Source: Escherichia coli
GTDB taxonomy: Bacteria; Pseudomonadota; Gammaproteobacteria; Enterobacterales; Enterobacteriaceae
NCBI RefSeq assembly: GCF_044324785.1
Contig: NZ_CP172127.1
Length of the DNA stretch: 64,000 bases
Direction: 5' to 3' (one strand)
A model generated the notes under the pieces. That model was not told the DNA's origin, did no database searches, and worked only from the letters and a program-made list of their open reading frames with translations. Both the position numbers and the translations under genes were made by a program. Positions 24,655-52,578 of the stretch are shown piece after piece (position 1 is the first letter of the stretch; each line of letters starts with the position of its first letter).

Positions 24655-24723
24655 ACCCCCTTTTGATTTCTTGTTTGACACTTGCAGTTGCCAGACCGCA
24701 AGGTGTTTTAACAAATCAAAAGG
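24655..24723 (-). promoter_or_regulatory. IS200 5' leader stem-loop immediately upstream of the tnpA start codon
   Basis: 12-bp arms CCCCTTTTGATT (24655..24666) and AATCAAAAGGGG (24712..24723) with 45-nt loop; RBS and ATG lie directly after the stem on the minus strand. Confidence 0.4.
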
Positions 24724-24739
24724 GGTTTTAATAACTGGC

Positions 24740-40499: not shown

Positions 40500-40744
40500 T
40501 AATTACACTGTGGGTTGACGCCGGAAGAATCAGAGAACAGATACCGTTCTTACTGTAAAACGTGGCTAATATTAATTGAGCACTGCAGTGTTCAGAGCAC
40601 AAAGAAGAAAAAAGATGTGTGCGAATGCCTGTAATGTGTTAAAAGAATGTTCCGCGTTTCCGGTACGCTTTTCGTAACTAACAATGCAGGGTGACGTAAC
40701 GCTGGTTGTGCCGGAAACGCGTCCCTCCCCCTATCTTTCCTGTT

Positions 40745-46889: not shown

Positions 46890-47001
46890 CAATAACCGGG
46901 GCTAACGCAGTTAGCCCCACAGTAGCGGAAAACGTTGTTTACCTTCAGGGCTGGGCGATCTCCATGATCGCAAACGATGCTTAACCTGTTAAGGAGATTC
47001 C

Positions 47002-48552
47002 ATGAACAGCATAAAACTAGAATGGAAACGTGGTGACTGGGCGGCTTACTTTGGACTGATGACCAACAATCTGACTAACCTGCTGACAATGATGGGTCTG
47101 CTAATTTTTGTCGTCGGAATCCCTACTGAAATTGTCTATGGACGCATTGCGCCTGCCTTTGGTCTTGCAGTGCTGGCGGCCAGTGTCTGCTACTCCTGGT
47201 TTGGTCTACAGATGGTGAAGAAAACCGGTCGTAGCGATGTAACGGCGCTGCCGTCTGGACCGAGCGCACCCTCAATCTTTACCGTGACATTCCTGGTGCT
47301 GATGCCGGTTTATCAGCAAACCAAAGATGCCAACTTTGCTATTCAGATAGGATTGGTGTGGTGCTTTGTCGAAGCGTTGATCCTGGTCGGTGGCTCCTTC
47401 CTGGGTGAGACTATCCGCAAGATGATCCCGCGTACAGTGCTGCTTTCTTGTCTGTCCGGACTGGGGTTATTACTGCTGGCAATGAACCCGATGCTGCAAG
47501 CGTTCGAAGCGCCGACAGTTTCTTTCATCGTCCTGTTATTGATCTTCATTAACTGGTTCGGTAAGAAGCCGATTTTTCCCCATATTCCTACCGGTTTGCT
47601 GTTGCTGATTGCTGGTACGTCCCTAGCGTGGATATCCGGTTTACAAAGCCCGGAAGACATTAAAGCGTCGATGTCTTCCTTCGGCTTCAACCCGCCGGAA
47701 ATTCATGTAAGGAGCTTCCTGCAAGGTTTGCCGCACGCTCTGCCATATCTGGCTTCTGCAGTTCCTTTGGGCCTGGCTAACTACATTTTTGACCTCGAGA
47801 ACATTGAAAGTGCGCACGCGGCTGGTGATGAATACAACACCCGTAAGGTCATGATGGCGAACGGCTTTGCCTCCATGCTCGGTTGCATGCTGGGTAATCC
47901 GTTCCCGGTAACCGTATATGTTGGGCATGCAGGCTGGAAAGCTATGGGCGCTAGTATCTGCTATACCCTCGCATCAGGCATCACTATGTTTCTGGTGCCA
48001 TTGTTTGGGTTGGGCGCGTTTATGCTCGCCATTATTCCCATGACTGCTATAGTGCCAATTCTGGTTTTTATCGGTGTGGTAACCGCCAATCAGGTGGTGC
48101 GAGAAACTCCTAAAGTCGAGGTTCCCGTCATTTTCATCTGTCTGTTCCCATGGGTCGCCAACTGGGCATTGACCATCGTTAACAGCGTGATGGGCGCAGC
48201 CGGAACATCCGCTGAGAAACTTGGTAGCGACCTGTTGCACAGCAAAGGCGTCTATTACGATGGACTGATGCATCTGGGAAGCGGTGCACCGCTGGCCAGC
48301 ATGCTGTGGGGATGCATTGCTATCTTTGCCATTATGAATAAGCCGCTGCGCGGGGCGATAGCTGCATCCTTTGGAGCACTGTTATCGCTGTTTGGCGTGA
48401 TTCACTCCCCAGCGGTTGGCTTTGCGGAAGGCAGCTCGATTGTGTTTGTTGTGGCCTACCTGATGATGCTTGCTATGTTTGCCCTCAAGCATGTTATTGA
48501 TAGCCGTGAAACAGTGGCTGCGTCTGAGCAGGAAGAGACTAAAACGACCTGA
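47002..48552 (+). CDS. Integral membrane transporter, 516 aa, family not assigned
   Basis: More than 10 predicted hydrophobic segments; located between yahG-like and yahI-like genes. Confidence 0.7.
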   Translation: MNSIKLEWKRGDWAAYFGLMTNNLTNLLTMMGLLIFVVGIPTEIVYGRIAPAFGLAVLAASVCYSWFGLQMVKKTGRSDVTALPSGPSAPSIFTVTFLVLMPVYQQTKDANFAIQIGLVWCFVEALILVGGSFLGETIRKMIPRTVLLSCLSGLGLLLLAMNPMLQAFEAPTVSFIVLLLIFINWFGKKPIFPHIPTGLLLLIAGTSLAWISGLQSPEDIKASMSSFGFNPPEIHVRSFLQGLPHALPYLASAVPLGLANYIFDLENIESAHAAGDEYNTRKVMMANGFASMLGCMLGNPFPVTVYVGHAGWKAMGASICYTLASGITMFLVPLFGLGAFMLAIIPMTAIVPILVFIGVVTANQVVRETPKVEVPVIFICLFPWVANWALTIVNSVMGAAGTSAEKLGSDLLHSKGVYYDGLMHLGSGAPLASMLWGCIAIFAIMNKPLRGAIAASFGALLSLFGVIHSPAVGFAEGSSIVFVVAYLMMLAMFALKHVIDSRETVAASEQEETKTT

Positions 48553-48578
48553 ATAGCCTGCAAACGGAAGATAATTCT

Positions 48579-49541
48579 ATGAAAGAACTTGTGGTCGTTG
48601 CCATTGGTGGCAACAGCATTATCAAAGATAACGCCAGCCAGTCGATTGAGCATCAGGCGGAGGCGGTGAAGGCCGTCGCCGATACGGTTCTGGAAATGCT
48701 GGCTTCCGATTACGACATTGTGCTGACCCACGGCAACGGGCCGCAGGTCGGTCTGGATTTACGCCGCGCGGAGATAGCCCACGAGCGCGAAGGGCTACCC
48801 TTAACGCCGCTGGCGAACTGTGTGGCGGATACGCAAGGCGGCATTGGCTATCTGATCCAGCAGGCGCTGAACAACCGGCTGGCGCCTCTCGGCGAGAAAA
48901 AAGCCGTCACCGTGGTGACTCAGGTGGAAGTGGATAAAAACGATCCGGGGTTTGTCCATCCCACCAAGCCCATCGGTGCATTCTTTAGTGAAAACCAGCG
49001 TGATGAACTACAAAAGGCAAACCCTGACTGGCGTTTTGTTGAAGATGCCGGACGGGGCTATCGCCGCGTGGTCGCCTCGCCGGAACCGAAACGTATTGTC
49101 GAAGCACCTGCCATTAAGACTCTGATCCAGCAAGGCTTTGTGGTGATTGGCGCGGGCGGCGGTGGCATTCCGGTGGTGCGTACTGACGCAGGGGATTACC
49201 AAAGCGTGGACGCGGTTATCGACAAAGATCTCTCTAGCGCGCTACTGGCTCGCGAAATTCACGCCGACATTCTGGTGATCACCACCGGCGTGGAAAAAGT
49301 GAGTATTCATTTTGGGAAACCCAACCAGCATGCACTGGATACAGTGGATGTCCTAACGATGGCCCGTTACATGCAGGAGGGTCACTTCCCGCCTGGGAGT
49401 ATGTTACCGAAGATTCTTGCCAGTCTGGAGTTCCTGGAACGTGGAGGTAAAAGAGTGATTATCACCACGCCTGAATGCCTGTCCGCGGCACTGCGTGGCG
49501 AAACAGGCACCCATATTATCCACTCCCAAGAGGAGACGTAA
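48579..49541 (+). CDS. yahI: Carbamate kinase-like protein (YahI/ArcC family)
   Basis: VVVAIGGNSI...LTHGNGPQVG...GGGGIPV amino-acid-kinase-family motifs. Confidence 0.8.
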   Translation: MKELVVVAIGGNSIIKDNASQSIEHQAEAVKAVADTVLEMLASDYDIVLTHGNGPQVGLDLRRAEIAHEREGLPLTPLANCVADTQGGIGYLIQQALNNRLAPLGEKKAVTVVTQVEVDKNDPGFVHPTKPIGAFFSENQRDELQKANPDWRFVEDAGRGYRRVVASPEPKRIVEAPAIKTLIQQGFVVIGAGGGGIPVVRTDAGDYQSVDAVIDKDLSSALLAREIHADILVITTGVEKVSIHFGKPNQHALDTVDVLTMARYMQEGHFPPGSMLPKILASLEFLERGGKRVIITTPECLSAALRGETGTHIIHSQEET

Positions 49542-50328
49542 ATTAAGGAAAGCGACCGCCGCCGTGAATTTTTAATGTTCATTGCAGATTATCGTGGGCT
49601 GGAAATGATAACGGTTGGGGAGTTATTGTTTAGTTGCTAAAACAGAACGATAACCAACCCCAACCGTTCTCAATTTCGAATACTATCTTTTCCATTTATC
49701 TCTGGATAGGCTTTGACGTCGTCCCTACTGAGTAAAATCCCCCTCATCATCCACCTAAAACCGATTGAAAACGGTCATTACTCTTGTGGCAAACAGGCTA
49801 AAGCCGTTCACGATGCTTCACTTCGCACCTTATCGTAATGAACAATACTGGTATTTCCAGTTCAGTTACGCCTACCCGTCTACCGCATTCTTTGCCCTAA
49901 CTGCGGCATAGTTCGGGATTATATCAGCTGGCTAAAGCCTTATGCTCATCAGACCACATGACTCATTGAGCATGTTGAGGCGTTACTCAAAATCTTGCCG
50001 ATTAAACATATTTCGTAATTTCTTACCCTGCACTAACATATCATCAATACTATCGACAAACGTCAGTTGCAAATAGAGGTCACAGGGTCTGATTGATGTA
50101 CTGTCAAGGCCGGGTCATGAAAGAGTTTGCCCTGTTCAAAGCTCATCGTTACGCACCGTCGTAGCCGATGCGGATACTCATCAATCCTCTGGATAGGTGA
50201 GGTGCGTAGTAGAGAAGCTCGGTCGTTTTTCGTTAATCTGAATCAGTACTGTCAACATATTCAAGTCGTTAATATGGATATGAATACCTCCTTTGACCTA
50301 GAGGTACAGATGCACTACCCCCCAAGCT

Positions 50329-50352
50329 GTCAACGACGGATGAAAAGTGGCT
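50329..50352. repeat. Solo IS21-family (IS100-like) terminal IR remnant
   Basis: TGTCAACGACGGATGAAAAGTGGC, matches the IR at 12747..12772 and 29826..29850. Confidence 0.4.
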
Positions 50353-50684
50353 CTTCCGCAACCTGGATGGAGATTTTCATGCCAGTGGACTCATGACCCT
50401 CTGCCTGAGTAGTTCAAATCCGGCTCGACCATACATCTGGCCTTTCAGCATTTTTAGCCAATTTACATGACTTTCGACCACCCCCCATTATTCCAGCGAC
50501 TGCTGATTGCCTCACATATAGCCGCAGCATCAGCTACCATCCTTGCAGCCACGCGCCGAAGTTACCACTTTCTCGTTGCTCTTTTAACCACTCCCTCCAT
50601 GGGTCCAGAAGTCCTCGCTCTGGAGGCCGGGTTGACATTTCAGGGAATGTTCCTGAACACACCCAGAGACTGACTGTCACACGT

Positions 50685-50741
50685 GATAAGCCTGTAATAC
50701 GGGATAAGCCTGTAATACGGGATAAGCCTGTAATACGGGAT
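50685..50741. repeat. Perfect 19-bp tandem repeat x3 (GATAAGCCTGTAATACGGG)
   Basis: Three exact head-to-tail copies; read through by the tail of the 50640..51539 ORF (IPYYRL x3). Confidence 0.9.
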
Positions 50742-50779
50742 ATTTCCCCTGAACCCACATCCCTTGTTATGTAGTGCCA

Positions 50780-51539
50780 TAACCTCTGTCCAACGCTGAT
50801 GCCGTTTTTGGCGGGTTTGCTGTTTAAGGCGTTCCGGACGACGGAGCGATGCTACAGGCACAGACAGTACTGGCTTAGGTGATTTCTTTGGTGACAACCC
50901 ACTGGCAACAAGACGTATCAGAGGCATCTGTCTGTACATCATTCGTTCAGGCGCATCGCCAATATTTTTTAGCAGGTGCCATCGATCAGCTATCTGTCTG
51001 GCCTGAGGTGCACCTTCACGTGCTGCTGTCGCATAGACTCCGCCACGGTCACGTGAGACAACCTGTATTTCCGGATATTTTCTGAACCAGGTCGCCAGCG
51101 TACTCTGATCGCAACCGGGAAGCAGGACGAGGGGACGGTGAGTATCAAGATTGACAATTAACGTGCCGTAATGGTGGCCCCGATGCCACGCCCACTCATC
51201 AATACCGACATGAGGCGCGCCCGACTGTTTCGTCTCCGGGGTATTAATAACCCTGCGAAGAAGAGTATCAGCACTGCAACGGAGCCCCACTGCCGTTGCT
51301 GCCTGTTTCCCGGCCTCACCTCCGGCTATTAATCCCAGTTGATGTTGTAAATTTTGTAACACCTGTGAAGAATGCTGGGAGTGAACCGGCGAAGGGGGCA
51401 AGCGACCCGGCAAAAATTTTACGTGAACAAGCCGGGTTACGGCAGTACCAGTGGCGGACGGAAAATACAAGCCATAGCGTCTGCCCTGAGCAGGGTAGAT
51501 GCTGTATCCGGCGCCGACGATAACTATGAACAGAGTCAC
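50780..51539 (-). pseudogene. ISL3-like transposase fragment, N-terminally truncated
   Basis: GIDEWAWHRGHHYGTLIVNLDTHRPLVLLPG...VVSRDRGGVYATAAREGAPQARQIADRWHLLKNIGDA resembles the ISL3-family catalytic region; no N-terminal zinc-finger/HTH part. Confidence 0.45.
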
Positions 51540-51716
51540 TACGCTTAAAGCATTCAGGACTTGTGCTGTTTTGCGTTTTCCGTGGAGATGGAGGGTTATA
51601 CCGTCAGAGCTAATAATTTGTCGACTGCATCTCCATCCGCAAGGTAACTGTAGAAGTGTCTGGTGATGCTGCCAACTTACTGATTTAGTGTATGATGGTG
51701 TTTTTGAGGTGCTCCA

Positions 51717-51992
51717 GTGGCTTCTGTTTCTATCAGCTGTCCCTCCTGTTCAGCTACTGACGGGGTGGTGCGTAACGGCAAAAGCACCGCCGGACATCAG
51801 CGCTATCTCTGCTCTCACTGCCGTAAAACATGGCAACTGCAGTTCACTTACACCGCTTCTCAACCCGGTACGCACCAGAAAATCATTGATATGGCCATGA
51901 ATGGCGTTGGATGCCGGGCAACTGCCCGCATTATGGGCGTTGGCCTCAACACGATTTTACGTCACTTAAAAAACTCAGGCCGCAGTCGGTAA
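51717..51992 (+). CDS. insA: IS1 InsA
   Basis: [88 protein letters not shown]. Confidence 0.9.
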
Positions 51993-52414
51993 CCTCGCGC
52001 ATACAGCCGGGCAGTGACGTCATCGTCTGCGCGGAAATGGACGAACAGTGGGGCTATGTCGGGGCTAAATCGCGCCAGCGCTGGCTGTTTTACGCGTATG
52101 ACAGTCTCCGGAAGACGGTTGTTGCGCACGTATTCGGTGAACGCACTATGGCGACGCTGGGGCGTCTTATGAGCCTGCTGTCACCCTTTGACGTGGTGAT
52201 ATGGATGACGGATGGCTGGCCGCTGTATGAATCCCGCCTGAAGGGAAAGCTGCACGTAATCAGCAAGCGATATACGCAGCGAATTGAGCGGCATAACCTG
52301 AATCTGAGGCAGCACCTGGCACGGCTGGGACGGAAGTCGCTGTCGTTTTCAAAATCGGTGGAGCTGCATGACAAAGTCATCAGGCATTATCTGAACATAA
52401 AACACTATCAATAA
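51911..52414 (+). CDS. insB: IS1 InsB frame (expressed as an InsAB fusion by frameshifting)
   Basis: ...[51 protein letters not shown]... Confidence 0.9.
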
Positions 52415-52425
52415 GTTGGAGTCAT

Positions 52426-52578
52426 TACCGTGTTCCCGACAGACGACTCGGTGAAAAAAGTGGTGTGGCTGGCAATCCAGTCTGCGTCCCAGAAATGGAC
52501 GATGCCGTTGAAGGACTGGCGAATGGCAATGAGCCGCTTTATTATCGAGTTCGGTGACCGCCTGGACGGTCACTTCTG
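52426..52578 (+). pseudogene. IS256-family transposase C-terminal fragment (last about 50 aa), abutting the IS1 right end
   Basis: VFPTDDSVKKVVWLAIQSASQKWTMPLKDWRMAMSRFIIEFGDRLDGHF-stop. Confidence 0.75.

Follow-up and report, generated by a model that had tools for sequence, protein, structure and literature searches.

The long-armed inverted repeat that lies just downstream of a carbamate-kinase-like gene in this Escherichia coli DNA is, on the strength of its homology, a conserved hairpin at the left tip of a broken insertion sequence (IS) of the ISL3 family. It is the decayed copy of a subterminal hairpin that intact relatives carry next to the start of their transposase gene, and its ancestral job was most likely to hold transposase expression low; in this explanation as a whole we place considerable confidence. 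Within the window, by which we mean the whole stretch of 64,000 nucleotides that was analyzed, the palindrome begins 24 nt in from the left tip of the degraded element; among the origins offered in a preliminary description of this DNA, the remnant of a mobile-element end is thus the one that holds. As far as the window is concerned, the element is a mobile-element fossil of an ordinary kind; several IS fragments, this one among them, cap a yah-like gene cluster.

The inverted repeat itself is real. Both 11-nt arms, AACGGTTGGGG and its exact reverse complement CCCCAACCGTT, are present exactly as described, and a repeat finder extends them to 18 nt. The 11-bp stem stands, but the 37 nt between the arms, which had been taken for an open loop, are themselves paired in a 10-bp and a 3-bp helix, and the two arms form the core of a 79-nt imperfect palindrome with 32 base pairs. 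Folding of both strands, which had been proposed as a check, gave stable structures, with a minimum free energy (MFE) of -37.2 kcal/mol for RNA of the + strand (z = -6.1 for a 91-nt and -7.6 for an 83-nt segment) and of -32.1 kcal/mol for RNA of the - strand (z = -6.2); none of 200 dinucleotide shuffles matched the fold stability of the palindrome. One perfect 11-mer inverted repeat by itself is unremarkable, because about 1.1 loci with a loop of up to 60 nt are expected per Markov-simulated window (five are observed). A perfect 11-bp inverted repeat that resembles the palindrome in its geometry, its arms set 47 nt apart (CCGCGTTTCCGG...CCGGAAACGCG, 40653-40721), is found where an IS3 fragment adjoins the LysR gene at the 3' end of the latter, and perfect inverted repeats with arms of 11-13 bp and short spacers also occur at 24657-24727 (arms CCCCTTTTGATTT/AAATCAAAAGGGG), 1517-1554 and 4553-4587.

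Six-frame translation of 49560-50400 yields a broken frame with a CxxC...CPNCG zinc ribbon and a helix-turn-helix, which tblastn and HMMER identify as the N-terminal half of an ISL3-family transposase. Its closest relatives are found in Shewanella algae (74% identity; 63.5% over 200 aa when the window is compared with the Shewanella transposase by tblastn), and the conceptually repaired protein scores above the Pfam gathering cut-offs for Zn_ribbon_ISL3 (26.1 bits, cut-off 25.5), HTH_Tnp_ISL3 (30.6 bits, cut-off 27.4) and DDE_Tnp_ISL3 (37.1 bits, cut-off 23). At the nucleotide level, window positions ~49574-50327 are 82% identical, with six gaps, to nt 1-762 of the Shewanella IS (locus L010, 2902-3665), which is the left 60% of that element. 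The start codon of the transposase has changed from ATG to ATT (49673-49675), several stops and frameshifts interrupt the frame, and the right 40% is gone, with neither a right terminal repeat (IRR) nor a target duplication left in the window. A second, ISEc38-like ISL3 element truncates the first copy; RefSeq annotates it as a frameshifted ISL3 family transposase, and many plasmid matches start at window position 50325-50328. The ISEc38-like element is itself cut by IS1 at ~51661, where the IS1 terminal sequence GGTGATGCTGCCAACTTACTGAT is seen. Within its frameshifted transposase gene, positions 50681-50742 hold a tandem repeat with an 18-bp unit (ACGGGATAAGCCTGTAAT; 3.4 copies, 97% matches).

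The gene cluster to the left of the fossil is a paralogue of yahB-yahJ and comprises genes for a LysR regulator, an ankyrin protein, AllH-like, FdrA-like and AllG-like proteins, a 516-aa ORF and the carbamate kinase. The last of these, annotated in RefSeq records as a carbamate kinase family protein, is 81% identical in nucleotide sequence to the chromosomal yahI-type genes at two orthologous loci (L003 and L005), at both of which a 459-aa yahJ-type amidohydrolase gene directly follows yahI. In the window only the beginning of yahJ is left (ATTAAGGAAAGCGACCGCCGCCGTGAATTT, vs ATGAAGGAAAACAAAAGCCGCCGTGAGTTT in L003); alignments to the two chromosomal loci stop at 49566-49571, and by eye the similarity extends to ~49575. 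A degenerate yahJ beyond these first 11 codons was rejected, as two yahJ proteins, compared with 49300-50700 by tblastn, produced nothing above noise. In the favored explanation, the ISL3-family IS inserted into about codon 11 of a yahJ-type gene, directly past the carbamate kinase, and then decayed through loss of the start codon, stops and frameshifts, with the arrival of the second ISL3 element removing its right 40%. The 516-aa ORF (47002-48552, +) lies between the AllG-like (yahG-type) and carbamate-kinase genes and has no Pfam match; the chromosomal clusters at L003 and L005 have only ~90-130 nt in its place, so the ORF is an insertion specific to the mobile version of the cluster.

Table 1. 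Positions in the window of the hairpin and its parts, the fossil ISL3 element that carries it and the adjoining features.
Feature	Position	Strand	Basis
yahI-like carbamate-kinase gene, 320 aa, last intact gene of the cluster	48579..49541	+	ORF, Pfam AA_kinase
yahJ remnant, first ~11 codons, ATG now ATT, IS insertion site	49542..49575	+	alignment to L003 and L005
Left terminal inverted repeat (IRL), TGTTCATTGCAGATTATCGTGGG	49576..49598	+	aligns with the Shewanella algae IRL GGTTCATCGCAGATTAGCGTGGA
79-nt subterminal hairpin	49600..49678	+	folds, repeat finder, homologous hairpins in relatives
Basal pairs of the hairpin	49600-49608/49670-49678		
Outer perfect 11-bp helix, AACGGTTGGGG/CCCCAACCGTT	49610-49620/49658-49668		
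Inner 10-bp helix, followed by the apical 3-bp helix	49622-49631/49645-49654		
Degenerate apical motif TTGCTAAAA	49634..49642	+	alignment with the conserved TCGCCAAAC of intact relatives
Transposase pseudogene, N-terminal ~220 codons left	49673..50327	+	six-frame translation, tblastn, Pfam
Second, ISEc38-like ISL3 element, frameshifted (boundaries +/- 20 nt)	50328..51660	-	

The window corresponds to an E. coli accessory module that 142 of 5426 complete genomes carry, in most cases on a plasmid of the IncF type or in a chromosomal island, and the palindrome travels with it. The 101-nt palindrome region was found in 141 of the 5426 genomes by distant blastn, at a median of one and a maximum of two places per genome, and sits at the same locus in every record whose context was inspected. 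As to the proposed search for further genomic copies, a pattern search found no second copy within the window, the palindrome is effectively single-copy in E. coli, and among 72,556 plasmids none carries it outside the module. In a scan for the exact arms across the genomes of 100,044 species (one per species), the only hits were two unrelated palindromes, from Spirosoma and Pseudomonadales MAGs. These counts dispose of the suggestion of a REP-like element, since the REP/BIME/ERIC class is defined by many dispersed intergenic copies per genome. The broader idea of a dispersed REP/ERIC-like palindrome or MITE, or of a recombination target such as an IS110-family target or an integron attC site, draws on shape only (an intergenic, imperfect palindrome of ~80 nt), and we give it almost no chance of being correct. 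The species scan yielded no family, no IS110-family element adjoins the palindrome, and its flanks are by eye unlike the attC core sites, which follow the consensus RYYYAAC/GTTRRRY. The IS110-target idea of the preliminary description, extended to IS1111 targets, finds no support in the population either: among 148 E. coli and 385 plasmid records, the only insertion polymorphism is an IS3-family element at ~49895-49902, outside the palindrome. This element lies inside the ISL3 pseudogene in some plasmids (e.g., pSA186_2), and the match is split in ~20 records. Uniqueness and the lack of a stable fold had together been named as grounds for dismissing the repeat; the palindrome is effectively single-copy, but its fold is stable.

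The position of the hairpin raises the question of whether it has been put to a new use. As had been stated, it lies just 3' of the carbamate-kinase-like gene, the extended hairpin beginning 59 nt and the 11-bp arm 69 nt after the stop codon, which ends at 49541. It might accordingly have been co-opted as the 3' end of the yah-like operon mRNA, where it would hold off 3' exonucleases or weakly terminate transcription; it is very stable, lies on the same strand as the last gene and belongs to a segment that is at least 99% identical in 147 of 147 E. coli records. We nevertheless consider such co-option unlikely. The earlier remark that no T-run follows was correct: there are no terminator-like sites in 49450-49850, and the 3' flank of the hairpin, UUCUCAAUUUCG, holds no U-tract, so that the short GC-rich stem with a directly following U-tract that defines an intrinsic (Rho-independent) terminator is lacking. 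The identity among records reflects the recent spread of one island or plasmid module rather than selection, and the hairpin was inherited ready-made from the IS. The element in the window no longer serves any transposase and, at most, supplies a stable 3' hairpin to transcripts leaving the yah-like operon.

Three loci in Shewanella algae (L010, L011 and L012) carry the element at different sites, with the common start GGTTCATCGCAGATTAGCGTGGACTGG; at L010 it measures 1282 bp, with imperfect terminal repeats (IRL and IRR) of 23-24 bp and an 8-bp duplication, TAAAAAAA, on both sides. The different sites, the IRR and the duplication together fix the position of the left tip. The three Shewanella sites have different flanks, which argues against the palindrome being flanking target DNA, and related elements are found at many metagenome contig ends, whereas the window copy is fixed at one locus. 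The Shewanella copies have the palindrome between their terminal repeat and the start codon, and the ATG is in the base of the 3' arm (...CCAACCGTTCTCAATGTCG). Several intact elements directly follow intrinsic-terminator hairpins or T/A runs (L012 2870-2912, L015 1300-1326, L010 2880-2903; for example, ACCCCGCC-CTTC-GGCGGGGT TTTTTTT followed by the element's first bases, GGTTC...), which suggests that the ISL3 subgroup prefers terminator-proximal, AT-rich 8-bp targets.

Homologous left-end hairpins occur in elements from Shewanella, Vibrio and Citrobacter, in a Pseudomonas type and in ISAeme19, which have the same kind of terminal repeat; the left one reads GGTTC(A/T)TCGC(G/A)GA in the Shewanella, Vibrio harveyi/Citrobacter and ISAeme19 elements. 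The arms differ from type to type, being AAAACGGTAGT/ACTACCGTTTT in the plasmid elements of Vibrio harveyi and Citrobacter and GACAG(N)CAGGG/CCCTGCTGTC in the Pseudomonas type and ISAeme19, with GACGAGGTAG/CTACCCCGTC and GACGGCA/TGCCGTC as further variants. The apical motif is TCGCCAAAC exactly in the Shewanella, Vibrio and Pseudomonas-type elements and TCTCCAAAC in ISAeme19; that of the window differs from it by three substitutions. A scan of metagenome contigs gave at least 120 matches, of which 26 were confirmed by tblastn and 25 more by similarity, with about three quarters put down to chance; as the scan required the terminal repeat and an exact TCGCCAAAC, its loci are no independent evidence of motif conservation. 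The strict conservation of the apical motif could reflect a transcription start, a kissing loop or a protein site.

Each of twelve representative left ends, drawn from 4-6 sequence types, folds as a single long hairpin that encloses the motif, with z between -1.3 and -7.6 and at or below -2.2 in 11 of the 12. The layout of the intact elements is constant: a terminal repeat of ~24 bp, a hairpin of ~65-80 nt, and a transposase start 0-4 nt after the base of the 3' arm or inside it. When the helices are anchored on conserved bases, the outer helix starts at IS nt 34-35 and, in nearly all types examined, stops 0-4 nt short of the ATG or GTG. The 3' arm of a strong helix contains or abuts the translation initiation region; in the MFE structures some of the start codon is paired, so that the ribosome-binding region is covered in the manner of IS10 and IS200, and no Shine-Dalgarno (SD) sequence is visible before the start codon in any type examined. 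The dead copy in the window is far more stable (-37.2 kcal/mol) than the presumably active Shewanella copies (L010 2928-3006, -24.7 kcal/mol); in the window, G49619 completes the 11-bp arm and the ATG-to-ATT change gives an extra basal pair.

The hairpin has been kept while its arms changed. Between the window and Shewanella on the one hand and the Vibrio types on the other, TA is replaced by AT and GC by TA, and within the Pseudomonas type AT is replaced by GC and GC by AT. In a sequence-only MAFFT alignment of 17 Pseudomonas-type ends, 93.7% of cells pair, vs 30-66% with slid partners, and both sides have changed in three of the pairs, a number that 2 of 500 shuffles reach; the compared left ends are related and partly redundant, and these covariation counts are modest. 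RNAalifold applied to a MAFFT alignment of all types recovered only four pairs because the arms are too different for sequence alignment, and the types were instead compared through folds of single sequences, through helices anchored on conserved bases and through the sub-alignment of the Pseudomonas type. In a distantly related ISL3 element from Ralstonia (31% aa identity), a plain AGGAGG is present and no similar hairpin is visible by eye; the feature thus seems to belong to the subgroup and not to be a by-product of the terminal repeats. The suggestion of an RNA structure in the preliminary description is thereby made plausible, as the relatives keep the hairpin in place with compensatory changes. 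Rfam 15, which includes RNA-OUT and IS-associated sRNAs, gave no match up to E = 10 in 47000-52500 and only sub-threshold chance matches in the intact relatives.

An alternative that takes the conserved motif as its starting point is a role at the level of DNA, in which the palindrome of the intact IS would be a subterminal site for the transposase or a host protein, or would form a cruciform during transposition. The apical motif TCGCCAAAC is indeed kept while the arms vary, and in Pseudomonas-type left ends (e.g., L015 1385-1398; IS nt 57-70) it lies within a perfect mini-palindrome, TTGGC-AGTC-GCCAA, a form that dimeric proteins typically bind; in the Shewanella and Vibrio types, only (G)TCGCCAAAC is kept. 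We think such a role improbable, as the right end of the Shewanella element lacks TCGCCAAAC, which is therefore no symmetric transposase site, and the helices tolerate G-U (G-T) pairs, which fits RNA and not duplex or cruciform DNA.

By analogy with other insertion sequences, we infer that the hairpin restrained the transposase through RNA. Sense transcripts that contain both arms, whether they read through from a neighboring gene or start at the tip of the IS, would fold and hide the initiation site from the ribosome. The placement of the transposase promoter matters here: a promoter at the IS tip would put the hairpin into every transposase mRNA, whereas with a promoter in the loop only read-through transcripts would fold. 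The same DNA may also encode a hairpin-shaped antisense RNA. The sense strand had seemed to be the selected RNA from three G-U/A-U changes between the window and Shewanella; this is contradicted by the folds of 35 unique left ends, in 29 of which the antisense strand folds better, by a mean of 2.9 kcal/mol and with G-U pairs numbering 126 vs 69. The selected RNA may therefore be the antisense strand and not the mRNA.

It is possible, although we hold it to be less than an even prospect, that the hairpin is the body of an antisense sRNA like RNA-OUT or art200, a refinement of restrained transposase expression rather than a strict rival to it. From a promoter in the first transposase codons, transcription of the predicted RNA would begin near the start codon, cross the palindrome and stop near the terminal repeat; the RNA would pair with the 5' part of the transposase mRNA, block translation in trans and control copy number. 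Over their first 220 nt, nearly all of ~25 intact left ends have the best or only sigma-70-like site on the - strand and at a fixed place, with a -35 box T(T/G)(C/G)CCA, a 17-bp spacer and a -10 box TA(T/A/G)(G/T/C)AT, and the site ends at +4 to +7, counted from the start codon's first base. The amino acids encoded at this promoter-like site vary between types, the antisense fold is, as noted, usually the stabler one, and a U-run follows the antisense hairpin in the Vibrio (UUUUUGUUUUU) and Shewanella (UUUUCAUUUCC) types. On the + strand, a weak site, TGGAAA-18-TATTGT, would put the mRNA start in the apical loop, comparable to the pIN/pOUT layout of IS10, and IS1411, an ISL3-family member of Pseudomonas putida, is reported to have outward-directed promoters at its left end (PMC3485313). 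Against this stand several points: the candidate promoters were recognized by consensus matching at 8-9 of 12 positions; the antisense -35 box overlaps conserved Trp-Glu/Pro-Gly codons, and coding constraint could explain its conservation; Pseudomonas-type elements have no U-run after the antisense hairpin; and in the window the antisense site has, by eye, decayed to 7 of 12 positions (TATCCA-17-TAGTAT). Another promoter-like sequence, TAAACA-16-TATCAT (9 of 12 positions; 49605-49632, -), lies in the 5' half of the palindrome and faces the carbamate-kinase gene; Shewanella has TTTCAT at that spot, so this -10 box is specific to the lineage of the window.

A more elaborate version combines the two strands, and we advance it only tentatively, regarding it as rather doubtful. 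The widespread ISL3 subgroup that includes the clinically relevant ISAeme19 would possess a hitherto undescribed IS10-like control module, of which the window preserves a fossil. The promoter of the antisense sRNA would lie inside codons 2-5 and the conserved sRNA loop, GUUUGGCGA, would be complementary to the 5' end of the mRNA, while the palindrome would fold read-through transcripts over the start codon that lacks an SD sequence.

For the window, the annotation is settled: the ~750 nt of apparently non-coding DNA after the carbamate kinase are the left part of a dead ISL3 element, which marks where the yah-like cluster lost yahJ before it spread among avian and human E. coli by way of islands and IncF plasmids. 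More widely, an ISL3 subgroup that includes ISAeme19 shares a structured left-end element that is without an Rfam family, and we found no description of an ISL3 left-end hairpin in the searchable literature. ISAeme19 is reported in polymyxin-resistant Enterobacteriaceae (PMC12554700); should the hairpin control transposase expression, it has a bearing on the transposition frequency of ISAeme19 and similar elements.

The closest counterparts are the unnamed elements of Shewanella algae and of Vibrio harveyi and Citrobacter plasmids together with ISAeme19, which are homologous to the window in terminal repeat, hairpin position and transposase N-terminus; compared with them, the window copy is a fossil that has lost its start and its right end and gained stops and frameshifts. 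Beyond the family, the finding extends well-known IS biology (IS10, IS50, IS200) and adds no new principle. Fold-back of read-through transcripts inhibits transposase expression in IS10 and IS50. In IS10, the antisense RNA-OUT blocks ribosome binding to RNA-IN (PMC7968456, PMC4513863). The likeness to IS10 lies in a palindrome over the transposase initiation region near the outer end, in a predicted outward promoter within the first codons that would give a hairpin RNA and in a predicted mRNA 5' end in the hairpin loop; IS10 differs in belonging to the IS4 family and in having no sequence similarity to the ISL3 subgroup, whose promoters are consensus predictions. In IS200, an inverted repeat at the left end (nt 69-138) forms a 5' UTR stem-loop that sequesters the SD sequence and blocks 30S binding, and the antisense sRNA art200 covers the same region (PMC4513863). 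The ISL3 subgroup likewise places an inverted repeat of ~70 nt at the left end just upstream of the transposase start, and may share the opposite-strand sRNA as well. The families and transposases are unrelated (HUH in IS200, DDE in ISL3), and whereas IS200 sequesters an SD sequence, the ISL3 subgroup has none that is visible and its start codon abuts or enters the helix; translational control is demonstrated for IS200 and would operate by analogy in the ISL3 subgroup.
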